Source: a virus. Taken from it: DNA of 64,000 bases. Below the pieces are notes generated by a model, which worked only from the letters and a program-made list of their open reading frames with translations, did not search any database and was not told the origin of the DNA. Location: IMG/VR virus record IMGVR_UViG_3300045988_110999; one strand, given 5' to 3'. Below are positions 4,424-49,010 of the stretch, piece after piece. Numbering within the stretch: the stretch's first letter is position 1; the number at the start of each line of letters is the position of its first letter. Position numbers and translations under genes: made by a program.

Positions 4424-4466
4424 ATATACGACTCCTTTCCCTATGTCAAAATTACTATATATGAGT

Positions 4467-9300: not shown

Positions 9301-12300
9301 AGTATTTTTTAAAGATATGAAGGGGGTCTTCAAATTGGCGTTGAAGGATACTCATGCGCTCTTTGCCGGGCAGGACACCGGCGGCGTACAGGGCCGCTCT
9401 TTGAGCTGTTTCTTCGTGAGTTGGGATACCTACCTTGTGTAGTTGTTTGTCGATACGGTTTTTGAGAGATAAAGCGTCTGAGGAGGGGGTGTTCCTATTT
9501 TCAATAAAGTTGAGAAAAGCTTTAACAGCCTTATCTGTGAAAGTACCATTTGAGAATGGTTTTAGAACCTTCGCTTTTTCCAAGATAGAGGCTCTAGCAG
9601 AGCTCAATGTTCCAGCTCCGTCGATGGCTTTGTTTGCCATATTGATAATTCTGCCTTCTACACCTTTTCGCTGCGATTTGTATTGAGGAGATTCTAAAGA
9701 TAATTTAAGCTGGGATAAAGTTTTAGCTACAAAAAGTTCATCATACAACTCTCTATCTTTTCTCAATGAATTTTGTAAAGTTTTGCTTCTTGATATTTTA
9801 TCGCATACGTAGTCAATGAATTCCGGATTTATTATAGCATGGTCGTATACAAGCATTTTCCAACTATTAGTAAATCCATCACCGTCTCGAAGTTGTTTAA
9901 TCAATTTATTTATATATTTAACTTCAAAATCTTTTAGCGTGTCATTCTCTTTATCGACGAAATTATTAGACGTGATATAATTCATCCCGTATTCTTTATC
10001 GCCTAATCCCCGTTCAATAGCGGCGTGGAGAGAGTGAATAGTTTCATGGAGTATAGTAGGTGTATTTTTATCCCCGGATAATGCGTCTTGGAAGATTCTA
10101 ATTACGTTGTATTCGGAGTAAGTTCTGCCGAGAGCTCCAGTCTTTTCCTTTTGCCCATCATAAACAAACACGGTTGCCATATCGTCAAGAGCTTCCGCAA
10201 TTTTCGACTGCAACCGTGGTGGTAAATCCTCGAAGGAATCATTTATTAATTTGTTTAAAGTGGGGCCGTCAATATTTACCCCTTCTGGAGTGGCCAAATG
10301 GATGGCTTTCTTTAGTTTGTTGCCAAGCTTGGTTAATCTATATTCGGGTCCAAGCCCCCCACCGGCTTCATGTACTTGTCCAGAAATTTTCTGTCCCTTT
10401 TCCTGATTTTTTTGCCTACTTCTTCCTGCGTCATTCCTTTTGGGAGGGTAAGAATTCCGCTGCACCACATCCCCCTCCAAATGCTCGGGTCTGTTACCCC
10501 CTCTGGCATCGGAGGTAGCTTCGTCGGTCTGTACATTCCCATCTTCTCCTTTCACTGTATGTCCATCCGCTAGGAATTGTTCCTGGTCTTCCTTACTAAG
10601 TCGGTTGAAAATATCCTGAGATGTATCATCCGGGAAGAAAGACCGAGAAGCACCTGTAACATGGACTTCATTTTCCTTTGTAACCTTAATGTTATCTGGT
10701 TCTGTATCTATATTATAGTAGTCTGCGAGATAATCCGCAATATCCTGTTTATCGGCATCCTTTAATTTAACTTTATCCCCACCGAAGGTTTCAATTTCCC
10801 CTTTTGGAATTTTAACATCCATGTCAGAAACAGAAGAAGTTACCATTTCATCTTTATATTTGTAAGACAGTTGATTTGGAGTAGCTATTCTTTCTTCTTT
10901 GGTGTTTACTATATATTTCCCTTGATTATTTACCGTTTCTCTATCTTTGCTCTCCGTTGCTTCGGCTTTGGTCTTTGCATTCTCTGTGTCTGCTTGCTTC
11001 TTGTATTTTTCGTATTCAGCCTTAGCCTTACTTACTTCTTCTTGGGTGTATTTGCCAGATTTGACGAGGTTCTGAAGAGCTTTGCCACCAGGGAAATTCA
11101 CGGAATTAGCTACCTTGGTAGGACCGTCGTTAACCCAGCTAATAATGTCAGGTACGAGATGCTCTTTGACATTCCCTCTCTGTACATACATACCTTTGTA
11201 CTTATCCTTACTAAGGGTGGCGGCACGTTCCCCGTATTTCTTTTCTAGTTCTTCGTGATGAAGGAAATAGTGAATAGGGTCGTTATTAGCCAGGTGCTTA
11301 CCACGGATTTCCTTAGCAAGAGCCTTACCGGCGGAATGAACAGCTTTTATTTCCTCTTTTGTCCCTTTTGATTTAGCTTCGTTTATGGTAGTTCTTGTCT
11401 TTTTAGCCTTTGTAGCCGGGGAGAGTTCTTTAACAGGTTTCTCTTTTGGTTTGGATTCACTTTCTCCACCTTGAGCTTTCGACATGATATCCAACAAATC
11501 TTGAGAGCTACCTTCAACCGGCTTGAGTATTGTTCTTTGAGCTTCTTTTTTGTTTTCGTAGCTCCTCTTTGCCCGTTCTCTATTCTTTTCGTCGGATACC
11601 TGCTTTGCCTGTCTATCTACTTCGGCTATCTTCTGTTCGATGTTCTGGATGTGGTCCAGAGGGTCATATTTATCCTGTGTACGGGCGTTGACGTAGGAGG
11701 TAACAGCTTCCTTGACGGATTCACGATACTTCTTAGGGAACTTGGAGAGGAGTCGGTTCATACCGAGACCTTTCTTGTAGTTAAAGAAGTTTTCTACGAA
11801 GTTATGGAGCTCTGTGACAGCCTCCTTGTCCCTACCTTTGTTGGCATACTGGGACAGCTTTCGAGCGAACGGTGATTGAATCGTTATTTCGTGTGATTTA
11901 TCGACACGCTGTTTTTCAAAACCACGGACGGCATCTACTTCAGCAATCTTATCCCGTTTGGCAATCTTGGCATTGGCCATCTCGATCTGATGGCTCTGTT
12001 CCTTAACGGACAGGCCTTCCATCTTCTTAGCATCGAGTGTAACCCCCCTGTTTTTAGAGCTGGAGTTAATGTGCTGTACCGTATCCATGTGATTCTTTTT
12101 GCTGACGATAGCTTGTGTCTTATCCCTATTTTCGGTAAGAGCTTTCCCGGAGAGAGCTTTAATCTGATTACGGATTTTAGGGGGAACTTCCCCACCGGCG
12201 CTTTTAGTTATAACCTGTTTCACGTCGTTAGGAAGAGAATCGAAATTACCATCGGAGGTGTAATATTTAGAATGGACGCCATTCTTAGCAAAGTCGTCCT

Positions 12301-14371
12301 TGATAGTCTGTTCTGTTGCCTTTTGTTTCCCTTTCTTTTGGGTTTCGTAGGAACGTGTTGCGGCGGCAGAACTTGCTCTCAGGGTCTTAGAGATACCGGC
12401 GTCGTCCGGGGTAAGGCCTAATTTATTAAGCCGTGCTTTACCAGCGTCAGAAATATCTCCACCCTTGGGTTTGTAGAAGTCGCTATGAGTCCCATTCTGT
12501 TTGATATCCTCTTGGATAGTGTTTACGGCGGTAGCTACGTTCTTCGTATGCTGTTCTTTATCAGCTTTACGGTTCGCTACTTCCTGTACGTGGATTTCCT
12601 TGCGCTGTGCCGGGAAGAAACCGGTGTTCGGAGAGATGCTATTGGCATTATCTAATTCCTGTTGGGAAATAGGAAGGCCCAGTTCATTTTTCTTTTGGAT
12701 GAGAGCTTGAGCCGTAGCCTGACGGTAACGGTCGTTATTTCGTTGTTGGAGGATAGCGGCTACTGGCTGTGCGCTCTTATTGTCGGAGATGATAGGGATA
12801 TTCGGCGATTCTATCATAGCTTTAACGAGGTCATCCCGTTCCGGGCCCGTCATCATTGCTGTCCCATGTACTGGATTATAGCCAAGGACGCTCGCTTCCC
12901 CACTATCAATCAGGTTAGCAATCGCCTGATTAGCTGAATACTGGTCGTCGCTCTTCCCGTAAGCTTCCTGTTCAGCTAAATCATACTCCGTTGGGTTATT
13001 CATCTTGTCCATGAGCTGTTGCGTGAATTCTTTAGGGCCTGTTGGTACAGAAGGTTCACTGACTGGTTGAGTAGCTGGGGCTTCCTGAGAGTTCATGGGG
13101 ATGGCATCTAAATCCTGCTGAGTAAGTTCAGTTTCGTCAACGGGGATATTTTCTGTAACCGGAGCTTCGTCTTGAATAGACTCTTCGACATTATGGGTAT
13201 CATCCTGTGCGTGAACGGCATCATCAATCGGACTGGGAACAACCTTTTCTTCACCAGTAGTGTCTACCCGTCTTGCTCTACGATGGCCGATACCACCAAG
13301 GAGGCCCATCGGAATCATGCCCATACCAGCCATAAACATCTGGTCCTTGGATTCATCACCCATTTCAATAGGATTGTAGTTGATATCTTCCCCGGTAAGA
13401 GCATTATTCTGGAATTCATTCTGTAAGCCTTCTGTATAGGATTCCATAGCCATACCCGGGACACTATGAGTAAGGAGTCGAGTAGAATATCTCTTGTCCG
13501 CAAAGTCTGCTACCTTGCCCCCAAAGTCAGACAGGGAGCCGAGAAGTCCTTTCCCAGCTTCCTGTTCGGTTGATTCTGTCGCTCTACTAAGGAGTCTCTT
13601 AGGAGCGTTTGCGGCTCCTTTCAACATGCTCATAGATACGGCATTAGATGCTACCGACAATCCAATATTATCCATGAAGTCAGTATCCATAGCATTACGA
13701 GCTTCTTCTTGTGTAGCCCCGTTCTGAATAGCCTGATTATATGTATCGCCTGCTTCTGATGCGGCATCTAAATAACCACCAGCGATGTCACCTGCGATTT
13801 TTGGAGCGGCACTGAAAGCTGTTCTAGCAATCCTTGCCCCCGTACCCAATTCTCCAACATCAGACCCTACGGCAATAGCCTTCTCTAAGGTGGAAGCTGT
13901 CTTTGCCAATCTTGCGGCTCTGGCCGCTTTTAAACCAGCTCCTACTACCGCACCACCAATACCGCCGGTAGCGGCGCCGACGAGAGCAGTGGCGGCCATG
14001 TCAGGGGCGGAAGAACCAACAAGATTGAAGGCGGTGTAAGCAAGGCCGTTTGGGTCTGTGATGAAATCAAAGAGACTATCGTTGCGGGTGAACTGCCGTC
14101 TTGCCTGTCTACCTTGGGCAAGAGCATCCCCAAAATCCTCGAGACCTTGTCCGAACCCGAATTCCTGATTCATATAAGTACCGATAGAACCGAGACTTGA
14201 CCCCAAACCATTCATAGCGCCGTTAATGGCACTATCTAAGAATCCACCATCACCGAATGAATCATAAGTCCCTCCATCATCCGGGGCAATGACACTATCG
14301 AGGTATTGGTCATTTGCGGCGGCTCTATCGTATAAGGCCTGAAGGTAATCTTCTGTAGTTCTTCCTGCCAT
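6332..14371 (-). CDS. Giant (2679 aa) multidomain virion/ejection protein, polyvalent-protein-like, with an HExxH zincin motif and TM-rich termini
   Basis: Uninterrupted ORF with AGGAGGG SD. Gly/Ala-rich hydrophobic N-terminal region; 'TILHETIHSLH' (HETIH at 10034-10048); C-terminal hydrophobic region 'FLVPMFIMAGALGMP...ALYGAPSLAGINLSGNIGLG'. Confidence 0.75.
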   Translation of the reverse strand: MAGRTTEDYLQALYDRAAANDQYLDSVIAPDDGGTYDSFGDGGFLDSAINGAMNGLGSSLGSIGTYMNQEFGFGQGLEDFGDALAQGRQARRQFTRNDSLFDFITDPNGLAYTAFNLVGSSAPDMAATALVGAATGGIGGAVVGAGLKAARAARLAKTASTLEKAIAVGSDVGELGTGARIARTAFSAAPKIAGDIAGGYLDAASEAGDTYNQAIQNGATQEEARNAMDTDFMDNIGLSVASNAVSMSMLKGAANAPKRLLSRATESTEQEAGKGLLGSLSDFGGKVADFADKRYSTRLLTHSVPGMAMESYTEGLQNEFQNNALTGEDINYNPIEMGDESKDQMFMAGMGMIPMGLLGGIGHRRARRVDTTGEEKVVPSPIDDAVHAQDDTHNVEESIQDEAPVTENIPVDETELTQQDLDAIPMNSQEAPATQPVSEPSVPTGPKEFTQQLMDKMNNPTEYDLAEQEAYGKSDDQYSANQAIANLIDSGEASVLGYNPVHGTAMMTGPERDDLVKAMIESPNIPIISDNKSAQPVAAILQQRNNDRYRQATAQALIQKKNELGLPISQQELDNANSISPNTGFFPAQRKEIHVQEVANRKADKEQHTKNVATAVNTIQEDIKQNGTHSDFYKPKGGDISDAGKARLNKLGLTPDDAGISKTLRASSAAATRSYETQKKGKQKATEQTIKDDFAKNGVHSKYYTSDGNFDSLPNDVKQVITKSAGGEVPPKIRNQIKALSGKALTENRDKTQAIVSKKNHMDTVQHINSSSKNRGVTLDAKKMEGLSVKEQSHQIEMANAKIAKRDKIAEVDAVRGFEKQRVDKSHEITIQSPFARKLSQYANKGRDKEAVTELHNFVENFFNYKKGLGMNRLLSKFPKKYRESVKEAVTSYVNARTQDKYDPLDHIQNIEQKIAEVDRQAKQVSDEKNRERAKRSYENKKEAQRTILKPVEGSSQDLLDIMSKAQGGESESKPKEKPVKELSPATKAKKTRTTINEAKSKGTKEEIKAVHSAGKALAKEIRGKHLANNDPIHYFLHHEELEKKYGERAATLSKDKYKGMYVQRGNVKEHLVPDIISWVNDGPTKVANSVNFPGGKALQNLVKSGKYTQEEVSKAKAEYEKYKKQADTENAKTKAEATESKDRETVNNQGKYIVNTKEERIATPNQLSYKYKDEMVTSSVSDMDVKIPKGEIETFGGDKVKLKDADKQDIADYLADYYNIDTEPDNIKVTKENEVHVTGASRSFFPDDTSQDIFNRLSKEDQEQFLADGHTVKGEDGNVQTDEATSDARGGNRPEHLEGDVVQRNSYPPKRNDAGRSRQKNQEKGQKISGQVHEAGGGLGPEYRLTKLGNKLKKAIHLATPEGVNIDGPTLNKLINDSFEDLPPRLQSKIAEALDDMATVFVYDGQKEKTGALGRTYSEYNVIRIFQDALSGDKNTPTILHETIHSLHAAIERGLGDKEYGMNYITSNNFVDKENDTLKDFEVKYINKLIKQLRDGDGFTNSWKMLVYDHAIINPEFIDYVCDKISRSKTLQNSLRKDRELYDELFVAKTLSQLKLSLESPQYKSQRKGVEGRIINMANKAIDGAGTLSSARASILEKAKVLKPFSNGTFTDKAVKAFLNFIENRNTPSSDALSLKNRIDKQLHKVGIPTHEETAQRAALYAAGVLPGKERMSILQRQFEDPLHIFKKYFPDGMPIYRLADGARRKMEKFVGDYSQKFLDVFKGLDKDERKVFDSLVLKANEMHRDPMQVINLDDGIHLAVRHDAFIEHYDSAPEALKKMQEIRNSGKYRLSKMIQESEENENAGFGKGFTVFALPKGSAAFKSEAAAQKYAKVHEKEAYVSMIRSLSDKPMKSSQVDNVMNSFMKYRDMMDKVYETSVQAAKESGANYKLPKKLNGYFPQIHLPYVVWIKDKDTKTFVRTASFYNASEASKKVKELNRAGQEAYWAEINPINAMAHGDRLAKVDRMTEDQLKQLNDEGLISVSESNNDTGNYNETLKRVFNSLFKEHHTVAVKDVMAHIEKVNRYKSNTGSAAHDNYVKKLQSQIRVTGLYKKLQKMKKDATISQDELNNIINSANMKQQFNPFFQKRSGASGYSQNVADSVYRYLITSGNFISKAKFYAEATAYYTSKYHKDIREEATTNEQKFLKTYIEANHRPTSVTALDRMINDYMNLLAEKDPTGIGSLLRRRYGHNLYTGLAKDTLSLQNLLKLGLFRPASLAVQAFQVLNANAKLGGNKFVGMSKYFRTGLKEATGSKNDAKWKELYDYIGINERSVAIDSEILGRPTGVFDKKILFGKSAKDFTDKSMWFFNVGDKWARKATAIGGYLKAMDDFKALTHDEKKMMLNEAITSWQTKKERARQNHYPFKAPKPTTESVRKEFVFNKTKDLVTETNFNYSVTDSPLAMTEAGVTGKLLLQFKKYPLFTLNFILHNTKEENIRFLVPMFIMAGALGMPCANLVDDIFDKTTGHSPVMALKKGMINWAGGSSAKKALVNVALYGAPSLAGINLSGNIGLGDAIQFDLGPTVSTVSNIAQGNGIIRSLAPRLGALEEAVTGKKENKYGQITAKYTPYDQLLKVFGFRTMAETNSSDATRVMKLATQKYNECKSQAKKEYIKNPNTDNYEALKIYGMSDRDIAKLLKTKDTTAMENSVKTVPKKAKSPAAQEVRDLSKTAQEFVK

Positions 14372-35840: not shown

Positions 35841-35915
35841 TGGCGGCGGTACTTAGAATCGAACTAAGACTAGCAGAGTCAAAGTCTGCTGTACTGACCG
35901 TTATACGATACCGCT
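35841..35915 (-). tRNA. tRNA-Gln (anticodon UUG)
   Basis: Cloverleaf by eye: anticodon stem GCAGA/TCTGC with loop CTTTGAC; T-arm CTTAG-TTCGATT-CTAAG; encoded 3' GCCA. Confidence 0.8.
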
Positions 35916-35918
35916 ATG

Positions 35919-35992
35919 TGGCATGGGTACAAGGACTCGAACCAAGATTGACGGTTTTGGAGACCGTAGTCTTTCCATTAGACGATACCCAC
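35919..35992 (-). tRNA. tRNA-Trp (anticodon CCA), with two U-U mismatches in the T-stem
   Basis: Acceptor GTGGGTA/TACCCAT; anticodon stem ACGGT/ACCGT with loop CTCCAAA; T-arm CTTGG-TTCGAGT-CCTTG is imperfect; encoded CCA. Confidence 0.6.
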
Positions 35993-35993
35993 A

Positions 35994-36081
35994 TGGCAGA
36001 GGAGGTGGGATTTGAACCCACGGTGCTGCTACGCACAGCTGTTTTCAGGACAGCCACCTTAATCCACTCGGACACTCCTCT
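35994..36081 (-). tRNA. Type II tRNA-Ser (anticodon UGA) with a long variable arm
   Basis: Acceptor AGAGGAG/CTCCTCT; anticodon stem GCTGT/ACAGC with loop CCTGAAA (C at position 33); variable arm GTGC-GTAGCA-GCAC; T-arm GTGGG-TTCAAAT-CCCAC; encoded CCA. Confidence 0.7.
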
Positions 36082-36085
36082 AATC

Positions 36086-36159
36086 TGGTTGCGGGGGATA
36101 GAGTCGAACTATCGTAACTGGGGAATGAGCCCAGCGTCCTACCTTTAGACGACCCCGCC
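36086..36159 (-). tRNA. tRNA-Met (anticodon CAU) with initiator-like features
   Basis: Anticodon stem CTGGG/CCCAG (three G-C pairs next to the loop) with loop CTCATTC; 1-72 is a G-A mismatch; T-arm GATAG-TTCGACT-CTATC; encoded CCA. Confidence 0.65.
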
Positions 36160-36837: not shown

Positions 36838-39294
36838 TTACATAGAACCGGCCAACGGGATTTCGTCTGTGACGACCTTCTCGTAAGAAGCGACCGGAGC
36901 AAAATAAATCTGGTCCTGATAGGCAAGTGCGTCAATCAGGTCATCATGCAAGGACTTCGGGAAAGCAAGGAATTCGCTTTCCAATTCCCCAAGAAAGGAC
37001 GCTCCCATCGGGAACCATACGGTGCCAGCTTTGAACCGGGGCTGTACGGCTTTGATACGCTCTTCTTTCTTTTCCTTGGCTTCCAAATCCTTGACCGTGA
37101 ACCAGATATTCCTCTTTGGCATTTCCTTTTCTATGAAGTGGGATAACGCCGCTTGGTAAGCGACCTTTTCCATACCCACATAGACAGGATGGTATCGAGT
37201 GACCGCCTCGAAGATAGCGTCTATCGTCTGGGTCGGATCGAACCTCCCATACTTTATATCCAATACGAACCAATGGTTTTCACTATTGACCCCCACAGTG
37301 CAGACTACGGTATAGTCCGCGGTTTCTTTCTGGGAAATAGCTAGGTCTACCGTAGTGAAGATGTTCATATCCTTCACATCAAGCTCTTCTTGCTTGTAGT
37401 ATTTGAAGTATTCTTTCTTGAACAGCTGGGTTTCCGGGGAAATAGCAATACACATCTTTTCCCGTTCCCATACATCCAGATTCCCGATTCGTCTAAAAGC
37501 TTCCCTTTCCGCTTTTATCTCTTCGGAGCTCCATCTTTCGGGCCATACACTGTTTCCTTCTGCGTCTAGGATAGGGATACGGACACCGGTAAACTTCAAA
37601 TCTTTCTGGTTCTCTATGACTCGTTCTATCAGGCATTTTTCACCCAGATTGTTCCCGATCATGAAGATTCTCGTCTTCTTCCCTAAGAACAATACGTCGG
37701 ACAGGAACCATTCCCAGTCCCCTTCCTGTACGGTATCTGACTTCGCATCTTCCAAGTCTTGTGGGTCGTCAATCAGGACAATAGACGGTCGGGCATCGTG
37801 AACGTTCAAACCACGGATAGCAGCCCCTTTGCCGTAAGCTTCAAAACGGACCCACATCTCTTCGTCATCTTTATCTTTTACGATGACCTCGAAACCGTTC
37901 TGGGACTGTTCTACGATACGTACCAGGTTCATGGATAGTAGCTCATTATTGAGCCATTCATCCTCAATTTCCTTTAACCGCTTACTGGCAGCTCTCTGCG
38001 TAGCCATGATAAAGACTACGTACTGCCTATCCTTGGAAGGATATGTCAGGCAGTGCATCGGGAAGGCTCTTAGTACGACGCCGCTATTATGGGTAACGAT
38101 GCAGCCAGTACCACATAAAAACAGCCCCGTAGGGCTGTCTACCTTGATACACATGGTGGGGACGGACTCACATTTAGAGACTTTCTTGACACTCCTCATC
38201 AGAGTGCGTTTATCCTGAGTATCACAAATCAAATCCCTCTTCCTTTTTAACTGAGGGAATTTAACTGTGGTCTTGAACGACACATCATAATGTGGCTTAC
38301 ATTCTTTGCCGTAGAGCTTAGATGGTTTCTTTATAATAGTAGCCTTAATACCTAAGCTTCTGACTAAATATAAAGTCCCCATAGCCAATCTTTCATTGGT
38401 GTTTGTGAAAGTAACCGTCCCAGCCTTGCTACCAGCCTTGGCAATCGTACCGTCACTATCAATGAGACCGGCCAATAATTGCCACCTGTTTTCCTCGCTG
38501 TCGTAGTAATACTCTTCCGGGATGTGCTTGTCGTATATCAACCCAAGGGATTTAAGCTCTTTCAAGAACCCTCCTTGGAACTTTATCGTCATTGCCGTTT
38601 TATCTTTGCGGCATGTCTTGGTTCCCCAGTCGATGTTCAGGAATGTCTCTTCAAAATCTTCCCCACCGCAAGTGATTTCGGCTGCTTTTGAATGACCATC
38701 TCCAAGCCATAACCCCAAATCATACGGAGAAATGATATGTTCTTTCCGAGGGTATTGTAAGGGCATAGCTAATGGTATACGGTATGCCTTTTCTTGATAT
38801 CCTTTTTTAGGTTTTCCCAAATCCTGCTTTGCGTACATCTCCAGTGTGGTTACGATATTCCATCTACGTTTGTGCTTGTCCCATACGCTCCACAGATGTT
38901 CTGCATCAGCAGTGATTTCCTCCCCGTCGTCAAATTCGACTTTGAAGCAAGGATGATCGTAAAAAATCTCGGAGGTGCTACCAACTAACACTGGGTTCCC
39001 ATTCTCATCAAATACGTAGTCCCCCGGCTTGATTTCCCCCATCAGCTTATATCCACTAGGGGTCGGGATAGGGGTGAAAATCGAGATTGCTTTTCCTGAC
39101 TCACGAAAGCCCTCTACAGCGTAGTGGTGCTTGCCTTTTAACAGTATCTTTCCCCATTCCTCTTGGAATGAAGGGGTCTTTACTTCATCTTCGACGGGGA
39201 GGAATACTCTTCTGAATAACATAAGGTCATCTTTGGCGTCACGGAACAGCTTCGCCATCATTACTTTCTTGTCCATATCTCTCTCCCCTTTCAT
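36838..39294 (-). CDS. terL: Terminase large subunit, interrupted by an intein in the Walker A P-loop
   Basis: 'VEGFRESGK|[intein]|SGVVLRAF' restores the G....GKS P-loop. Nuclease half includes 'DLAISQKETADYTV'. ATG 39276 (behind GGGGAG) is a likelier start than 39294. Confidence 0.9.
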   Translation of the reverse strand: MKGERDMDKKVMMAKLFRDAKDDLMLFRRVFLPVEDEVKTPSFQEEWGKILLKGKHHYAVEGFRESGKAISIFTPIPTPSGYKLMGEIKPGDYVFDENGNPVLVGSTSEIFYDHPCFKVEFDDGEEITADAEHLWSVWDKHKRRWNIVTTLEMYAKQDLGKPKKGYQEKAYRIPLAMPLQYPRKEHIISPYDLGLWLGDGHSKAAEITCGGEDFEETFLNIDWGTKTCRKDKTAMTIKFQGGFLKELKSLGLIYDKHIPEEYYYDSEENRWQLLAGLIDSDGTIAKAGSKAGTVTFTNTNERLAMGTLYLVRSLGIKATIIKKPSKLYGKECKPHYDVSFKTTVKFPQLKRKRDLICDTQDKRTLMRSVKKVSKCESVPTMCIKVDSPTGLFLCGTGCIVTHNSGVVLRAFPMHCLTYPSKDRQYVVFIMATQRAASKRLKEIEDEWLNNELLSMNLVRIVEQSQNGFEVIVKDKDDEEMWVRFEAYGKGAAIRGLNVHDARPSIVLIDDPQDLEDAKSDTVQEGDWEWFLSDVLFLGKKTRIFMIGNNLGEKCLIERVIENQKDLKFTGVRIPILDAEGNSVWPERWSSEEIKAEREAFRRIGNLDVWEREKMCIAISPETQLFKKEYFKYYKQEELDVKDMNIFTTVDLAISQKETADYTVVCTVGVNSENHWFVLDIKYGRFDPTQTIDAIFEAVTRYHPVYVGMEKVAYQAALSHFIEKEMPKRNIWFTVKDLEAKEKKEERIKAVQPRFKAGTVWFPMGASFLGELESEFLAFPKSLHDDLIDALAYQDQIYFAPVASYEKVVTDEIPLAGSM
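38086..39090 (-). mobile_element. Intein (335 aa) with Ala1 and the W/C/T triplet (class 3 type) plus a LAGLIDADG homing endonuclease domain
   Basis: Block A 'AISIFTPIPTPSG'; block B 'DAEHLW'; block F 'TMCIKVD...GLFLCGTG'; block G 'CIVTHN|S'; LAGLIDADG motifs 'LGLWLGDGHS' and 'LLAGLIDSDGTI'. 1005 nt, in frame. Confidence 0.85.
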
Positions 39295-42230: not shown

Positions 42231-43538
42231 ATGGGTAAACGTATTATTTGCATCGACAGTAAGGACAATAAGGTATGTTTCTATGATAAGAACGACAATC
42301 TTTTTGTTCTGGATATTGGCAACGAAATGCTTATGGGAAAGACTTTCCCCTGCCCTCATTGTGGGAAAGAACACGAGGTAAAGGATTTTGTACAGATCGG
42401 GGATGAGCTACTATGCTCTGATTGCTATGACCCTAGCTTCTATGATAAATGCTCAGAATGTGGGGAATACTTTAAGAAGGATGAGCTGTTTGACATAGAC
42501 GGTAAACGGCTCTGCAAGTCCTGTTTCAACAATAATTATTTTACCTGTGATAATTGCGGAGCGGTTTATCCAAAATCAGAAGCCGTCTATGTTGGATATG
42601 ACAGATTTTGCCAGGATTGTGTCGACCAGCTTCTAGACGAAGGAGAACTCATCCAGTGCGTCTGCTGTGATGAAATCTTGCGGGCTGAGGATGCTTATGA
42701 GCTGGATGGAAATTTCTACTGCTCGTCCTGCTATGACCAGGAACGTGAAGAAGAATATGGAGACTCCATCGTAGGATACCACTGTAACCGTCCATTCCGG
42801 TTCAAGAGTTTGGCCAGCGATGTAGATTACCCGAAAAAAGGTAATCTTTACCTAGGTTTAGAACATGAACTGTCTAACGCCGGGGAAGATAACTACAAGC
42901 TGGCAAAAGAGCTTGTAGATGATTATGACCGTGTTTGCGAACACGACTCGTCAATCAGTGATGGGTTTGAAGTCATCTCAGACGCATTGACATTTGATTA
43001 TTGGAGAAAGAAGGAAGATTTGCAGGCTTATATGAATACCATTAACAGATTGTCGGATTTCGATCCGGACGACTCTAGCGGTATCCATGTCCATATTTCT
43101 AGAGGCCCTCTCTCCGACAATGCTGTCATTGAAATGGCGTGGTTCGTCATGCAACATTACGACGACTGCATTAAATTTGGTCGTCGCGACCCCGACGAAT
43201 GTGAGTATTGTGAACGGGTCACGAGAGGCGACAAGGAAGACTTATGGGATTATGCTACGGGTCATGGTGTAGCCGTCAACCTCGAACATGAATCGAACCT
43301 CGAATTGCGGTTCTTTAAGACGACCGACGATGTCGACCACATGTGGGCCATCTTAGAATTTAGCTACGCATTGGCTATGGTAGCGAAAGGGGGTGTCATT
43401 GATATTGAATGGGCGGATATCCGTAAATTCTGTGAAGAAGATGGGAAAGAAGAACATTTCCTCGCCGAATTGAACGAAGGATTCGATTGCGAAGAGAATG
43501 AGGATTATGAATATAACCTCACCGAATACTTTGCTTGA
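42231..43538 (+). CDS. Amidoligase (Amidoligase_2 / glutamine-synthetase-like COOH-NH2 ligase family) with four N-terminal LIM-like CxxC zinc-ribbon pairs
   Basis: N-terminus has CPHC..CSDC, CSEC..CKSC, CDNC..CQDC, CVCC..CSSC. C-terminus has 'YLGLEHELS...HDSSISDGFEVISDALT...SSGIHVHISRG...NLELRFFKTT'. Confidence 0.7.
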   Translation: MGKRIICIDSKDNKVCFYDKNDNLFVLDIGNEMLMGKTFPCPHCGKEHEVKDFVQIGDELLCSDCYDPSFYDKCSECGEYFKKDELFDIDGKRLCKSCFNNNYFTCDNCGAVYPKSEAVYVGYDRFCQDCVDQLLDEGELIQCVCCDEILRAEDAYELDGNFYCSSCYDQEREEEYGDSIVGYHCNRPFRFKSLASDVDYPKKGNLYLGLEHELSNAGEDNYKLAKELVDDYDRVCEHDSSISDGFEVISDALTFDYWRKKEDLQAYMNTINRLSDFDPDDSSGIHVHISRGPLSDNAVIEMAWFVMQHYDDCIKFGRRDPDECEYCERVTRGDKEDLWDYATGHGVAVNLEHESNLELRFFKTTDDVDHMWAILEFSYALAMVAKGGVIDIEWADIRKFCEEDGKEEHFLAELNEGFDCEENEDYEYNLTEYFA

Positions 43539-43591: not shown

Positions 43592-44482
43592 ATGTGTGTT
43601 ATCGCTGTCTATGAAAAAGGTTTGGTTTTGAACGAAAATGAATTAAAGAACTGCTTTACAGGCAATTCCAACGGGGCTGGACTCATGTATCAGAAAGACG
43701 GCAAAGTCCATATTGAAAAAGGCTTCATGAAATGGGATACATTCTGGGAGGCGGCTAAACATCTCCCCTCTGATGTAGATAGGGTCTTTCATTTCCGGAT
43801 TGCTACTAGTGGTAAAATCAGTGCCGCTTGTTGTCATCCCTTCCCTATCTGTGATGACTATAAGAAAATGAGCTTGGCTAGTTGTGATACCCCCATGGGA
43901 TTCGCCCATAACGGGGTTCTTGGCGATTTCGAGCCGAAGAAAGGAATGAAGTCCACTTATTCAGATTCTATGAAGTTCGGTAAAGAAGTCCTGTTCCATT
44001 TAGGTAATCTCTTAAATGAACGTAGTGTACGGGATTTGATTGAATTGTACACAACTTCCCGGTTTGCCATTATGACTCCCAAGAATACCTATATGATTGG
44101 CTCATGGGAACAGTCAAGAGAGTCGGGAGCGTTTTATAGTAACACGTCCTATGAAGGATACCGTTATTTAAATTGTTTCGACGATTCGTTCGTCAGAAGT
44201 TATTATTCCGACTTTGTTTATGGTGGATATACACAAGATGATTATACGGAAGGTATTCTCATTGAAAGATTCCCAAACAACGAAAAAATAGAAAATGAAA
44301 TTGCCGAAGCTATCGAGGAACAGTTGGGCGTGTTCATCTACGATACCGACGACTCCAATGTAGGAAAATTCAAAGATACCACATTCTTCATTGAAAGGGA
44401 ATTAGGCAAACGACTGCCAGAGAGTGGAATTATTAAAGTTGGCAAGCGTGATGTCAAATGGAGAAGAATCAGTTTAAAATAA
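43592..44482 (+). CDS. Class II (Ntn-type) glutamine amidotransferase-like protein
   Basis: Mature N-terminus 'MCVIAVYEKG' (Cys2 nucleophile), 'FHFRIATSGKISAACCHPFPI', 'FAHNGVLGDF'. ATG 43592 follows AGGAGG. Confidence 0.7.
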   Translation: MCVIAVYEKGLVLNENELKNCFTGNSNGAGLMYQKDGKVHIEKGFMKWDTFWEAAKHLPSDVDRVFHFRIATSGKISAACCHPFPICDDYKKMSLASCDTPMGFAHNGVLGDFEPKKGMKSTYSDSMKFGKEVLFHLGNLLNERSVRDLIELYTTSRFAIMTPKNTYMIGSWEQSRESGAFYSNTSYEGYRYLNCFDDSFVRSYYSDFVYGGYTQDDYTEGILIERFPNNEKIENEIAEAIEEQLGVFIYDTDDSNVGKFKDTTFFIERELGKRLPESGIIKVGKRDVKWRRISLK

Positions 44483-44495
44483 TAATAAAGTTAAA

Positions 44496-44520
44496 GGGCC
44501 TGCTTAGACAGGCCCTTTTC
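44496..44520 (+). terminator. Rho-independent terminator
   Basis: GGGCCTG-CTTAGA-CAGGCCC followed by TTTT. Confidence 0.7.
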
Positions 44521-44547
44521 TTATCCCAAAAAGAGGTGATGTTGCTT

Positions 44548-44784
44548 ATGACAAGGTTAGAGATGTATTTGACAGAAGCTACGAGGATGTATGCATTTTA
44601 TCCTTTATGGGATCGTAATGACACTCCGAGTGTAATAAGAAGGTTTATCGAGGATAGAACGAGATGTTTCGACAGGCCATACCCCCTTTTATTCGATTGT
44701 CCGAAAGTTTTGTCTTGTTACGACGATTGCGAGGCTTGCTGGAATCGTTTCTTTAAGAACTTTAGTGAGGTGCCTGCCTTATGA
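44548..44784 (+). CDS. Cys-rich small protein, paralogue 1 of 5 (C...C..CW family)
   Basis: '...CPKVLSCYDDCEACWNRFFKNF'. ATG 44548 behind AAGAGGTGA. Its stop overlaps the next ATG (ATGA). Confidence 0.6.
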   Translation: MTRLEMYLTEATRMYAFYPLWDRNDTPSVIRRFIEDRTRCFDRPYPLLFDCPKVLSCYDDCEACWNRFFKNFSEVPAL

Positions 44785-45026
44785 ATGAAGAGGAAAGGAT
44801 TTTAACAATAAGAGTAAGGAACGTCTGTAAAGATATGGGCGCAGATAATTTAAGTGTTTTCGCATCTGGATTGATAGAGTATGCGTTGGAACATGGTGGT
44901 ACAGATACCATATCAGGACTACCTCGAATCTGTTCCGGTTCTAACTGTATCGTTGGCAAGACTTGTAAAAGATGCTGGGGAAAGGAATTCGATAAGCTAC
45001 AGGAAGGTGGTGAACCATTATTATGA
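44781..45026 (+). CDS. Cys-rich small protein, paralogue 2 of 5
   Basis: 'MNEEERILTIRVRN...CSGSNCIVGKTCKRCWGKEF'; ATGA coupling on both sides. Confidence 0.65.
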   Translation: MNEEERILTIRVRNVCKDMGADNLSVFASGLIEYALEHGGTDTISGLPRICSGSNCIVGKTCKRCWGKEFDKLQEGGEPLL

Positions 45027-45280
45027 ACAGAGAAGAATTAGTATTGACCTTACGGATTAGATATGTAATGAGTATACGCAACGGGGCCAATATCACACTT
45101 GTCATAGATGACATGAGGAGATGTTGCGAAAAGCTTAATTATCAGAAGGCTTATGGATTTTCCCTTTTTTGCGCATGTCCGTGCTCCTGTACTAGGAATT
45201 GTTCCTGCTCAGAATGTTGGGAAGAAGCAATAACCAAATTCCTTATCCTTAGCAGCGGAGATGTTGATATTTCTTTGTAA
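45023..45280 (+). CDS. Cys-rich small protein, paralogue 3 of 5
   Basis: 'MNREELVLTLRIRY...CACPCSCTRNCSCSECWEEAI'. Confidence 0.65.
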   Translation: MNREELVLTLRIRYVMSIRNGANITLVIDDMRRCCEKLNYQKAYGFSLFCACPCSCTRNCSCSECWEEAITKFLILSSGDVDISL

Positions 45281-45291
45281 CGGAGGCGAAA

Positions 45292-45540
45292 ATGATGAAT
45301 AACGACGAAATGGTATTGACGATGAATATTAGGTATCTACTCACGATGAATGCAAAAGAAACGGCCCTTTTGGGGGTCATTAAAAATCGTGTTAATGTCA
45401 TCAACAACCGGAGAGAGAATAATTGCGAACCCTATGCCGGTTGTCCTTGTGACTGCCCCATAAACATAACTTGCACACAATGTTGGTCCAGGGCAATAGC
45501 CAGGTTTGTGTGTATAGAAGACAATGCGCCCGTTTTATGA
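45292..45540 (+). CDS. Cys-rich small protein, paralogue 4 of 5
   Basis: 'MMNNDEMVLTMNIRY...GCPCDCPINITCTQCWSRAI'; GGAGG SD. Confidence 0.65.
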   Translation: MMNNDEMVLTMNIRYLLTMNAKETALLGVIKNRVNVINNRRENNCEPYAGCPCDCPINITCTQCWSRAIARFVCIEDNAPVL

Positions 45541-45551
45541 GAGGTGATACT

Positions 45552-45803
45552 ATGATAGAATGTGAAATCTATATGACACTGGCAATGAGAAATGTTTACG
45601 ATAACGACTTCGTAAGGCCTTTAAAAATCAAGGACAGGGTTAAATACTTTGCCTCAGCGTACAAAGAAAGAAAGGCTACTAAAAGCTGGGTATATTGCGG
45701 GCATCCGGTTACACTATCATTTTGCCACTTTTCGTGCCCTGATTGTTGGAGACATTGGACAAAAGAATTTACAGACAATAAACAAGACCATTGCGATTTA
45801 TAA
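45552..45803 (+). CDS. Cys-rich small protein, paralogue 5 of 5
   Basis: '...YMTLAMRNVY...YCGHPVTLSFCHFSCPDCWRHW'; ATG 45552 behind GAGGTGA. Confidence 0.6.
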   Translation: MIECEIYMTLAMRNVYDNDFVRPLKIKDRVKYFASAYKERKATKSWVYCGHPVTLSFCHFSCPDCWRHWTKEFTDNKQDHCDL

Positions 45804-45817
45804 GGAGGAAACTGCCT

Positions 45818-46222
45818 ATGAAGCAAATCAACAGTTTTGCAAAGAAGATGGTAAACCGATTAAAGAAAGAAGGTTTTACGATTCAATACTACCATGCCCG
45901 AAGTACGAACAGTGTGTATCTTAAATTAGATTATGGTATGGGGCATAGTATCCGTATCAGCGACCACAAAGGGAAACACCATTTAAAGTATCGGTACAAC
46001 ATGGTTATGTATGGAACCAAACCTAGGAAGTGTATCTCTAAATTCGGCCCCCGCTATTTTGCCCCATTCAAGAACATGGAGTATATGGTGGGGATTATTA
46101 AAAAGGAGAAAGTAGGCTTAATTAATCGAATTGGAACTGATAAGTATGAAGAGGGTATGAAACTTAACTTCCTGATTAACGATGGCAAGCCTGGGTTTTG
46201 GGCGAATTATAAATTAGTATAG
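45818..46222 (+). CDS. Hypothetical protein
   Basis: ATG 45818 behind TAAGGAGGA; 'STNSVYLKLDYGMGHSIRISDHKGK' not assignable by eye. Confidence 0.6.
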   Translation: MKQINSFAKKMVNRLKKEGFTIQYYHARSTNSVYLKLDYGMGHSIRISDHKGKHHLKYRYNMVMYGTKPRKCISKFGPRYFAPFKNMEYMVGIIKKEKVGLINRIGTDKYEEGMKLNFLINDGKPGFWANYKLV

Positions 46223-46544: not shown

Positions 46545-47300
46545 ATGGAATTAGTAAAAGTCGTAAACAATCAGTTAGTAACGGATAGCAGGCAGGTAGC
46601 AGGAGCTTTTGGGAAACGACATGACAATGTTATAGCTACTGTTAGGGGTCTCCTTAAAAATAAGGATACCCAACAGATGTTCTATGAAACGACTTACCAT
46701 AACGAACAGAACGGGCAAGACTACAAGATGTACCTCATGAACCGTGACGGGTTCTCTCTCCTTGTTATGGGGTTTACAGGGCCAGAGGCTTTAGAGTGGA
46801 AGATTAAGTATATCAATGCTTTCAATGAGATGGAAAAGAAGTTACAGGAATCTTCCTCCCCCGCCCTCCCCGACTTCAGCGATCCGGTTATCGCTGCTCG
46901 TGCATGGGCCGACCAGTACGAGGCAAGAAGGAAAGCAGAAAAGGCTATTGAGGAAAATAAACCAAAAGTCATTCTTGCTGAATCCATCGAGGTAAGCGAT
47001 ACAGATATCTCAATCGGTGCGCTGGCAAAGATTTTAAAACAGAATGGTGTAGATATTGGTAGGAATCGTCTGTATAGCTGGATGAGAGAAAATGGCTACC
47101 TCATCAAGACAGCTAAGAGTTGGAACCAGCCTAAACAGATTTATATGGACGCTGGCTATTTCCGGATTACAGAGACAGTCCATGACAGCGGTTACGGTTA
47201 TACTCCCAAGATTTATGTCACCACCTACGTAACAGGCAAAGGACAGAAATATTTCATCAATAAGTTCTTAGCTAGCAAAGATTTGAAACCAGTTGGTTAA
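46545..47300 (+). CDS. Rha-family regulatory domain fused to a KilAC/ANT antirepressor domain
   Basis: 'VVNNQLVTDSRQVAGAFGKRHDNVIATVRGL...YLMNRDGFSLLVMGFTGPEALEWKIKYINAFNEME', then 'ISIGALAKILKQNGVDIGRNRLYSWMRENGYL...YVTGKGQKYF'. Confidence 0.8.
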   Translation: MELVKVVNNQLVTDSRQVAGAFGKRHDNVIATVRGLLKNKDTQQMFYETTYHNEQNGQDYKMYLMNRDGFSLLVMGFTGPEALEWKIKYINAFNEMEKKLQESSSPALPDFSDPVIAARAWADQYEARRKAEKAIEENKPKVILAESIEVSDTDISIGALAKILKQNGVDIGRNRLYSWMRENGYLIKTAKSWNQPKQIYMDAGYFRITETVHDSGYGYTPKIYVTTYVTGKGQKYFINKFLASKDLKPVG

Positions 47301-47318
47301 AAAGGAGGAGGAGTAAGT

Positions 47319-47576
47319 ATGAAGCAAGTCAAACAAAGTAAACAGAAAACGACTCAAGAAGTTGTAGCCTATATGCGTCGGCAATCAAGGATAGACGCCC
47401 GTTACATGAACATGGAATACGAGGATTACCGGTTCCGTTGGAGGAACTGGCTCAAGGAAAAGGATAAGAGGCAGGCTGGATACATGTCTGCCTTCCTGTC
47501 CGATAGCCCGAACCTTGATAACCTCTATGTTTGCGAGGCTATTTACTCGTACAAGAAAAGCGGGTTCATGCAATAA
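47319..47576 (+). CDS. Hypothetical protein
   Basis: ORF track; AAGGAGGAGGAG SD. Confidence 0.6.
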   Translation: MKQVKQSKQKTTQEVVAYMRRQSRIDARYMNMEYEDYRFRWRNWLKEKDKRQAGYMSAFLSDSPNLDNLYVCEAIYSYKKSGFMQ

Positions 47577-47617
47577 GGTTGCTTTGATATTTATACAATG
47601 ATATGGGAGGTATTGTT

Positions 47618-47875
47618 ATGAGTAGTTATTCAGAAAAATATAAATATATATACAAAACATTCAAAAAGGCTCATTTAAAGAGGTCTTTGGGGGATGAGTA
47701 CCTAGACAGCATTGGAGAAACCACAAGGCTTCACTCCCCTATGGTATACGAGGCAGAATATGGTATACTATACTTACGAGATGACGCAGTATTTGATTTA
47801 TTGAACTATATAGAGGAGTTGAAAGCTAATGCAACTAAAACCGTACCAGCAGGTAGCCGCCGACAGGATTTCTAA
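47618..47875 (+). CDS. Hypothetical protein
   Basis: ATG 47618 behind GGGAGGT; its 3' end overlaps the helicase start by 47 nt. Confidence 0.55.
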   Translation: MSSYSEKYKYIYKTFKKAHLKRSLGDEYLDSIGETTRLHSPMVYEAEYGILYLRDDAVFDLLNYIEELKANATKTVPAGSRRQDF

Positions 47876-49010
47876 ATCTTATCAGCTTATCCTTGCCGAT
47901 GAAATGGGGCTTGGGAAGACAGCAGAGTTATTGAGAGGATTGTGGCCGACATTCGTTAGCTATCGGACAAGGAAGATACTCGTAGTCTGCCCGGCCTCAT
48001 TGAAATGGAACTGGGTACGGGAAATAAAACGGTGGTTCGGGCCATTCATAGCCAAACCGGATGACATGCGGCTCCGTATCGTCGTCACGAACTACGAACG
48101 GTTAAAGAACTACGTAGATTATGCGAGGAAGGGCCTTTTCGGAACAGTAGTATTCGATGAGGCCCATTACCTCAAAAATCCCAAATCACAACGGTTCTAC
48201 TATGCGAATGTCATTGCCACTTACGCCGAAAAACGTTTCCTCCTCACGGGTACGCCCATGGTGTCCGGCCCTTGTGACTTAGCTCCCTTACTGGACATCT
48301 TAGGTCTGCTCCCCCTCTTTGGAGGATATGAAGGCTTCTACAAACGATACTGTAATCCGATCTGGAATGGTTATGGCTGGGACTACTCCGGTTCCTCCAA
48401 TAAGGACGAGTTGAAAGAAAAGTTAAAAGAGTATATGATAAGAAGGACAAAGAAAGAATGTGGTATCAAACTTCCCCCGAAAAAGATAGTTGATGTACCT
48501 GTCATAGAGTGCAAGCAGAGTTTCGCTGAATCCCTACAGGAAATCGAGGAACAGACACAGGTAGTCAATAGACTTAAATTCCCCTATTCTATCAAGTTCA
48601 TAGATGACTTATTGGCTAAAGGGAAACGACCTGTCGTATTCGTTCACCACCGGGACTTAATGAGGAAGCTAGCAAAACACTACGGAAAGAAGGCGGTAAA
48701 GATAACCGGAGGCCAATCCATGGAGAATAGGCAGAAAGCAATAGACGCATTTCAGGACGAGGATGTTCCTTTGATTTTCTGTTCCCTCCAAGCTTCTGCT
48801 ACAGGGATTACCTTGACCAGTAGTGATACAGCTGTATTCCTCGAATACTTGTGGTCTCCGTCCGTATCTCAGCAGGCACAGGATAGGATTCACCGGTTAT
48901 CACAGACGAAACCTGTTACGATTTATAATCTGTATTGTCCTAAGTCAATCGAAATGCAGAAAGGCATGAGGTCTTATGCAAAAGAGCTGGACATGAAAGG
49001 TATTTTGTAA
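47829..49010 (+). CDS. SNF2-family (DEAD-like) helicase, compact form
   Basis: 'LKPYQQVAADRI...LILADEMGLGKTAE', 'VVFDEAHYLKN', 'LLTGTP', 'QAQDRIHRLSQTKPVTIYNLY'. Confidence 0.85.
   Translation: MQLKPYQQVAADRISKSYQLILADEMGLGKTAELLRGLWPTFVSYRTRKILVVCPASLKWNWVREIKRWFGPFIAKPDDMRLRIVVTNYERLKNYVDYARKGLFGTVVFDEAHYLKNPKSQRFYYANVIATYAEKRFLLTGTPMVSGPCDLAPLLDILGLLPLFGGYEGFYKRYCNPIWNGYGWDYSGSSNKDELKEKLKEYMIRRTKKECGIKLPPKKIVDVPVIECKQSFAESLQEIEEQTQVVNRLKFPYSIKFIDDLLAKGKRPVVFVHHRDLMRKLAKHYGKKAVKITGGQSMENRQKAIDAFQDEDVPLIFCSLQASATGITLTSSDTAVFLEYLWSPSVSQQAQDRIHRLSQTKPVTIYNLYCPKSIEMQKGMRSYAKELDMKGIL

Follow-up and report, generated by a model that had tools for sequence, protein, structure and literature searches.

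Across phages of many different hosts, Amidoligase_2 genes are repeatedly found with GATase-like (glutamine-amidotransferase-like) or gamma-glutamyl-cyclotransferase partners, the cyclotransferase standing in place of the GATase in the cassettes of Firmicute phages. The role of the pair formed by a phage Amidoligase_2 and a GATase-like protein has been called unexplored (PMC10580990, PMC11318856). As cited in these two articles, Iyer et al. 2009 proposed cell-wall modification, or secondary-metabolite or peptide ligation, and for the substrates of phage Amidoligase_2 the two articles carry proposals since 2009 and state no determination. The locus described here belongs to IMG/VR virus record IMGVR_UViG_3300045988_110999, of which a stretch of 64,000 nucleotides (nt), hereafter the window, was analyzed. 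As in many phages, its cassette consists of an amidoligase and a class-II GATase-like protein; unlike the other phage cassettes examined, in which CxxCW proteins are found in none except that of the Clostridium perfringens element pCP_P201 (accompanied by a trio of two-module CxxCW proteins), the pair is followed by a tandem array of small Cys-rich genes, present in five copies in the window and in up to nine in related phages. Tandem, fast-turnover arrays of small phage proteins are a known kind of genomic behaviour; the array reported here encodes proteins of about 80 residues that form a family not described before and match no known fold.

The five genes of the array are the following.

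44548..44784, + strand: copy 1, 78 amino acids (aa), of the type always first in an array, ending ...CWNRFF..EVPAL
44781..45026, + strand: copy 2, 81 aa, with the tail EGGEPLL
45023..45280, + strand: copy 3, 85 aa, with nine Cys
45292..45540, + strand: copy 4, 82 aa, the modelled copy, with three helices and a Cys loop
45552..45803, + strand: copy 5, 83 aa, carrying His (GHP) as its first ligand; all complete arrays that were read end with this type or with its close GHP paralogue

All five are present in the list of open reading frames (ORFs) as the first-pass annotation had placed and packed them, and the Cys strings it quoted agree letter for letter with the translations. Copies 1 and 2, as well as 2 and 3, overlap by an ATGA, the gaps between copies 3 and 4 and between 4 and 5 are of 11 nt each, and a GGAGG-like ribosome-binding site lies ahead of all five starts. 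The start of copy 1 at 44548 was considered correct because its ribosome-binding site lies 9 nt upstream, its orthologues begin MT(R/T/K)LEMYLT, and an alternative, longer ORF from 44458 would cross a conserved hairpin, described below.

The five genes are one family of true paralogues. BLASTP similarity between the copies is weak but colinear, reaching 2e-17 for copies 3 and 4 and ranging from 1e-6 to no match for the other pairs. A profile built from 25 members, taken solely from other phages (loci L004, L007 and L008), detected exactly these five among the 1075 stop-to-stop ORFs of the window, with E-values of 3e-17 to 7e-12, the next-best ORF standing at E = 3.1. No DNA-level repeats were found in the array, which rules out a recent amplification and indicates that the copies are old duplicates.

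Profile searches retrieved 39 close relatives from 5.8 billion clustered proteins and, from 1.84 billion representatives, 28 clusters (50% identity); the sources were metagenomes or one Megasphaera elsdenii assembly, and no member was named. Pooling the database matches with the ORFs of fetched loci gave 153 distinct members, whose alignment, together with the independent profile, bears out the earlier description of diverged paralogues that are conserved at the ends and variable in between. The search with a hidden Markov model that the first-pass annotation had proposed thus returned a family and matched no characterized one. In fact, scans of all five copies gave no usable Pfam match (none at E < 0.1) and zero matches to PHROGs and PADLOC; in NCBIfam four copies had no match and copy 5 had two far-sub-threshold ones (E 0.02-0.05), and a sequence-profile search of the PDB gave nothing below E = 0.68.

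Conservation within the family is concentrated at both ends. Met1, Glu5 and Thr9 are found in all 153 members and Arg13 in 152, while the C-x2-C-W is kept in 150-151 and a further Cys, 3-5 residues upstream of the CxxC pair (C62 and C65), is also conserved. The first ligand position, before a Pro, is Cys in 96/153 members and His in 23/153, and such alternation between the two residues is typical of metal ligands. A structural zinc or Fe-S knuckle is expected to present four conserved ligands of these kinds in a knuckle-plus-helix arrangement, so that the Cys3(Cys/His) knuckle, with CxxCW opening the last helix, is a predicted site for Zn or Fe-S. It had been proposed that each copy offers four ligands; this stands for all five, but the CxxCW pair alone is invariant, and the first ligand may be Cys or, as in the GHP of copy 5, His. 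At the C-terminus, usually G-x-x-P-x-L, the last residue is Leu in 125/153 and Ile in 26/153 members, an acidic residue occurs among the last seven positions in 142/153, and the residue or residues preceding P-x-L vary. The information content at positions 14-48 is about 1 bit or lower, and judging from this alignment hypervariability extends from the end of helix 1 across helix 2. Isoelectric points (pI) span 4.6 to 9.5.

Copy 4 was modelled by AlphaFold2 from a 37-sequence alignment, with a mean predicted local distance difference test (pLDDT) of 85.6 and a predicted TM-score of 0.72. The compact model contains helices at residues 4-18, 23-42 and 61-75 and a Cys loop at 43-60; CxxCW begins helix 3, and the last seven residues or so form a tail of low confidence. 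As E5, T9 and R13 are spaced i, i+4 and i+8, they fall on one face of helix 1 as a polar stripe. Structure prediction and a Foldseek search had both been suggested in the first-pass annotation; the latter found no known fold in the PDB or BFVD (best E 1.9; no PDB match at E < 1).

The knuckle raises the possibility that these proteins are regulators of transcription or nucleic-acid-binding proteins, for instance zinc anti-sigma-like (ZAS) or DNA-binding, that reprogram host or phage expression. They are small, helical, predicted zinc proteins in a block that seems early from its position, and the C-x3-C-x2-C of several copies resembles the H-x3-C-x2-C of zinc anti-sigma factors; ZAS (zf-HC2) domains share the small helical domain and a Cys/His ligand followed by C-x2-C at a helix start. 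However, neither the E5/T9/R13 stripe nor the invariant Trp behind CxxC is characteristic of ZAS domains. No copy matched zf-HC2 (PF13490) or any other Pfam family, and none found a structural match in the PDB, which includes RsrA, ChrR and RslA. Moreover, a pI ranging from 4.6 to 9.5 disfavors one common nucleic-acid ligand, and it would be unusual to find nine divergent regulators side by side in an array. Overall, we regard a regulatory role as very unlikely.

Precursors of ribosomally synthesized and post-translationally modified peptides (RiPPs), or bacteriocin-like ones, would likewise come as tandem paralogues with a conserved N-terminus beside modifying enzymes, a known layout; the leader would be conserved, and the enzymes nearby would process the Cys-rich core. 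Residues 1-13 are indeed conserved here, Met1, E5, T9 and R13 being invariant or nearly so. Nevertheless, this explanation is scarcely credible: a compact fold is predicted with high confidence, it is the middle that varies and the Cys motif that is conserved, which is the reverse of a hypervariable core, and neither a transporter nor a leader peptidase nor an immunity gene was found in the block.

Related contigs share one gene order, namely zinc-finger amidoligase, GATase-like gene, array, a 134-aa gene, a 98-101-aa gene, an antirepressor and an SNF2 helicase. Within it, the number of array copies, as read from profile scans of the fetched loci, differs as follows.

Window: 5 copies, the smallest array
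L002: 7 copies
L001: 8 copies and a 20-residue remnant (4346-4438)
L028: 8 copies
L026: 8 copies and one truncated (7716-7910)
L017-19: 8 copies and one interrupted by a stop (L017 11139-11414)
L007: 8 copies and one frameshifted (2458-2805)
L004: 9 copies
L016: 9 copies

Every complete array begins with the copy-1 type and ends with a GHP-type copy, either copy 5 or its close paralogue. Among the relatives, P0019 joins the body of copy 5 to the tail of another paralogue, and P0023 and P0060 have different bodies with an identical tail; these tail-swap chimeras point to recombination at the conserved CxxCW. Judged from these sequences, then, copies are gained, lost, pseudogenized and recombined between related phages. 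Among the window, L001 and L002, the ratio of nonsynonymous to synonymous substitution rates (dN/dS) is 0.19-0.54 for the five array genes and 0.02-0.11 for the amidoligase, GATase, antirepressor, SNF2 and 134-aa genes. All orthologue pairs of array genes have dN/dS < 1, so that the contrast indicates purifying selection that is either 5-10 times weaker than on the neighbours or mixed with diversifying selection. The rapid evolution suspected earlier is hence apparent both in dN/dS above that of the neighbours and in arrays of 5-9 copies with pseudogenes across related phages.

Such a strict frame around a hypervariable hairpin, together with quick turnover among close gut phages, is what is expected at an interface of phage-host conflict. 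The copies could accordingly be stand-alone early effectors, that is, metal-stabilized inhibitors or binders of host proteins acting in host takeover, anti-defence or superinfection exclusion and evolving in an arms race, with no tie to the amidoligase and an adjacency that reflects a region of accessory genes. Conflict genes typically show the changes in copy number, the pseudogenes, the chimeras and the raised dN/dS seen here, and the array lies within a block of small genes, beside the antirepressor and the SNF2 helicase. The tandem small-accessory families of phage early regions show the same tight packing, copy-number variation, fast evolution and restriction to a narrow clade; unlike them, this array keeps a strict constant frame (N-terminal stripe, knuckle and tail), is repeatedly associated with an amidoligase, and constitutes a new sequence family. 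No copy matched a PHROGs anti-defence family or PADLOC, and the sole detectable relatives outside the clade also adjoin an amidoligase, in another type of genome and in another gene order, which argues against independence from the enzyme. Stand-alone effectors are the main alternative to the reading favored below, if a somewhat unlikely one.

The enzymes preceding the array, and the hairpin between them and copy 1, are as follows.

42231..43538, + strand: zinc-finger amidoligase, 435 aa, with LIM-like CxxC fingers (residues ~40-170) and then a probable, diverged Amidoligase_2 domain (glutamine-synthetase-like carboxylate-amine ligase)
43592..44482, + strand: GATase-like gene, 296 aa, a class-II glutamine-amidotransferase-like N-terminal-nucleophile (Ntn) hydrolase starting Met-Cys
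44493..44525, + strand: GC-rich hairpin and T-run between the GATase-like stop and copy 1, terminator- or attenuator-like

The pair had been named an amidoligase and a GATase in the first-pass annotation, and transitive homology agrees. In Pfam, the 435-aa protein matches LIM at 5.5e-8 and Amidoligase_2 (PF12224) at 0.0068, which is under the cut-off. However, its tblastn matches in MT839723 (1e-14), MW202733 (1e-8) and the Clostridioides difficile phage AR1086-1 (2e-10) are to proteins that each pass the PF12224 cut-off; the motifs LGLEHEL and SSGIHVHISR are conserved, and at the G-x-E-x-E and G-[IL]-H-V-H motifs the protein can be aligned with an unambiguous Amidoligase_2 member. Four CxxC pairs at 42348-42741 match a eukaryote-type LIM, fused before the amidoligase domain, and the MW202733 and MT839723 homologues have similar N-terminal zinc fingers. 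The 296-aa protein has a direct Pfam match of just 0.08, but is related by BLASTP (3e-12) to its counterpart in MW202733, which in turn matches GATase_4 at 3.2e-6. It carries the Cys after the initiator Met that is expected of class-II (Ntn) amidotransferases, and its HFRIATSG and AHNGVL, which correspond to the H-x-R-x-A-T and H-N-G motifs of that class, align with the MW202733 partner. Its start is most likely 43592 (Met-Cys) and not 43535, the orthologues being called from MCVIAVY. The product is thus predicted to be a class-II GATase-like Ntn hydrolase, for which glutamine use and peptidase activity are both conceivable. In MW202733 and MT839723, too, the zinc-finger amidoligase and the Met-Cys GATase are adjacent, which indicates a recurring two-gene cassette. 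Scans of IMG/VR and of GTDB representatives with the amidoligase gave no matches, and a scan of JGI metagenomes gave one short contig. In a blastn of the region against phage records, the antirepressor gene alone was matched.

The array follows the enzyme pair in all related loci in which both are covered. Beyond this clade, one protein, P0062, is, besides one artefact, the sole match among 1.84 billion proteins, with E 6.6e-4 for a 5-sequence profile and 4e-5 for a larger one. P0062 comes from C. perfringens pCP_P201, a phage-like 'plasmid' of 93 kb that also encodes DnaB, DNA ligase and gyrase; with two paralogues in tandem it makes up a trio of proteins of 206-218 aa. All three contain two modules each of the form G-C-P ... 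C-x3-C-x2-C-W-x2-[IAL]-x2-[FY] and end in YLEGEE or FLEDEE, and in the AlphaFold model of P0062 (pLDDT 82.8) each CxxCW opens a long helix; a Foldseek search of this model against the PDB gave a best E of 1.1. The trio lies directly upstream of a clear Amidoligase_2 (3e-37), which has no BLAST-detectable similarity to the window enzyme and a different N-terminal domain. No GATase gene was found near the trio. The gene order is reversed between the two lineages, as the trio precedes its ligase and the array of the window follows the enzymes. By a rough estimate, adjacency by chance in an element of ~116 genes would have a probability of ~2%, and lower given the rarity of amidoligases in phages. 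To our knowledge, this repeated association of one small-protein family with Amidoligase_2 has no earlier description.

Two further candidates from these searches were discarded. P0041 (3237 aa), whose 7e-17 match to the 5-sequence profile lay in the N-terminal helix, is the artefact mentioned above, a score summed over ~23 tandem repeats; by our reading of its sequence, the repeats resemble a plant Rx_N-type coiled-coil. In AR1086-1, a 31-aa ORF (MDKQEYTNCCGNCKECDEYHKMLCNSLYEEE; L015 5007-5102) two genes upstream of the amidoligase looks like module 2 of the C. perfringens proteins (CSGNCKECW...YLEGEE); as it scores ~0 bits against the profiles, it was not taken as evidence.

The reading that we favor, at about even confidence, is that the copies are diversifying small binding proteins that serve as clients or adaptors of the amidoligase. 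Their expression would be from the rightward (+ strand), probably early, gene block that also encodes the enzymes, and they would be interchangeable on a constant, metal-stabilized frame, the constant parts docking on one shared partner and the variable hairpin recognizing differing host or competitor targets. The shared partner would most likely be the adjacent amidoligase, a carboxylate-amine ligase of the glutamate type, together with the Ntn amidohydrolase. In the client version, which we prefer, the ligase would act on the module of knuckle, helix and acidic tail, for example by amidating or ligating the tail or the E5 carboxylate, and the Ntn hydrolase would possibly trim the tail beforehand or reverse the modification; the small protein would thereby be activated, capped or conjugated. 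The adaptor version, in which targets would reach the ligase by way of the small proteins, is only slightly less likely. Knuckle, helix and acidic tail were taken as the element recognized by the ligase because they are common to both lineages. Moreover, glutamine-synthetase-like ligases activate carboxylates, for which reason the tail acids or E5 are candidate sites; trimming of the tail would also be consistent with the lack of a GATase gene where the C. perfringens tails already end in Glu-Glu.

Several observations weigh against a tie between array and ligase. The similarity to the pCP_P201 lineage is limited to the knuckle and the helix that follows, at ~40 bits, and the adjacency to an amidoligase has a single independent replicate; neither a search with a module-only profile nor one with the C. 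perfringens trio found a third lineage of the module. In addition, MW202733 and MT839723 hold the pair of zinc-finger amidoligase and GATase with no family member nearby, and an Amidoligase_2 occurs without the module in AR1086-1, Geobacillus GR1, Bacillus M2 and 055SW001, and Porphyromonas phages. Since such cassettes lack the family, the enzymes must have another, more general substrate, and an enzyme pair that can do without array proteins is also what stand-alone effectors would predict. The same applies to the conserved terminator-like hairpin that parts the enzymes from the array as two units. Furthermore, the residue before P-x-L is variable, and a simple scheme of trimming to expose a Glu fails for some copies. 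The functional link to the amidoligase suggested by the first-pass annotation therefore gains from a second lineage that again adjoins an Amidoligase_2, but does not extend to the family being the general substrate of the enzyme pair; likewise, co-occurrence holds in pCP_P201 and in all related loci covering both, and fails in other phages with an amidoligase.

A Pup-like version of the client reading would have the Ntn hydrolase trim the tail and the amidoligase ligate the exposed carboxylate to host lysines. Amidoligase_2 belongs to the same glutamine-synthetase-like class as the Pup ligase PafA (Iyer et al. 2009, as cited in PMC10580990 and PMC11318856). As in the Pup/PafA/Dop system, a small protein with a flexible, acidic tail (e.g., QEGGEPLL) accompanies a glutamine-synthetase-like ligase and an amidohydrolase, and the C. 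perfringens versions end in Glu-Glu with no hydrolase gene nearby. Nevertheless, tags are normally single and conserved, and here there are 5-9 divergent paralogues, which are predicted to be folded, metal-binding proteins of three helices (pLDDT 85.6) and not disordered. They lack the conserved terminal Gly-Gly-Gln/Glu (GGQ/GGE), ending instead in Leu or Ile after a variable residue before P-x-L, no similarity in sequence or fold to Pup or ubiquitin-like proteins was found, and the hydrolase of the window is of the Ntn class-II GATase type and not a paralogue of Dop or PafA. Tagging of this kind appears quite unlikely. By analogy with pupylation, a looser scheme can also be imagined, in which the amidoligase would covalently modify or conjugate the diversified small proteins and the Ntn hydrolase would process or remove them, giving a tagging or capping with similar logic in which each copy would steer the chemistry to a different host target; we consider it unlikely.

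The family offers a concrete and easily expressed candidate partner for phage Amidoligase_2 in two unrelated lineages. If the association is functional, these would be the first protein partners for a widespread, uncharacterized phage enzyme cassette, and if the reading as covalent modification is true, the first natural protein substrates for it.

The hairpin at 44493..44525 has the sequence GGGCCTGCTTAGACAGGCCC, followed by TTTTCTT, and recurs in L001 (4075-4105), L002, L007, L016 (9953-9980) and L017. In the more distant L004 (7487-7512), a hairpin of different sequence occupies the equivalent position, which implies that the structure was preserved by compensatory change. A scan for sigma-70 promoters performed no better than on shuffled sequence. 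The stretch from the end of the GATase-like gene to copy 1 has no space for a promoter, so that transcription of the array probably passes through an attenuator. The hairpin would then set the enzyme:array ratio, or the timing, via partial termination.

Downstream of the array, one gene is found in nearly every related locus.

45818..46222, + strand: conserved gene after the array, 134 aa, dN/dS 0.03-0.11, no family matches

Synonymous divergence is uneven across the block: among the window, L001 and L002, dS is saturated (>1.7 or undefined) for the amidoligase gene at 42231-43538 and 0.2-0.4 for the antirepressor and SNF2 genes (46545-49010), indicating a mosaic history.

Another small protein (62-77 aa), with the signature F..(L/F).KRY..(I/L)Y, lies just downstream of Amidoligase_2 in pCP_P201 and in Geobacillus, Bacillus and Porphyromonas phages, and none occurs in the window. 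Its genes are at L010 9955-10143, L020 5232-5450, L021 4883-5095, L022 4866-5090 and L023 4725-4958; it directly follows the amidoligase in four of them, and in GR1 a cyclotransferase gene intervenes. Such an arrangement hints that Amidoligase_2 ligases may often travel with a small protein partner.

As for the host, a closely related element is present in the Megasphaera elsdenii assembly GCA_016899685.1 (L016, JACJJB010000003.1, 152.7 kb) and inside much longer metagenomic scaffolds, such as one of 365 kb (L017). The host may thus be Megasphaera, and the element could exist as a prophage. We know of no characterized Megasphaera phage. The large terminase ORF of the window (36838-39294, - strand) encodes 818 aa; its counterpart in L003 and L028 has 812 aa with Hom_end/LAGLIDADG intein domains, and that in L004, L016, L018 and L026 has 477 aa and no match to an intein-endonuclease domain, so that an intein is present in some relatives and not in others. 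Finally, four transfer RNA genes (Gln, Trp, Ser and Met) lie at 35841-36159 (- strand) and a single ORF of 2679 aa spans 6332-14371 (- strand), a combination that fits a large tailed phage of ~100 kb.

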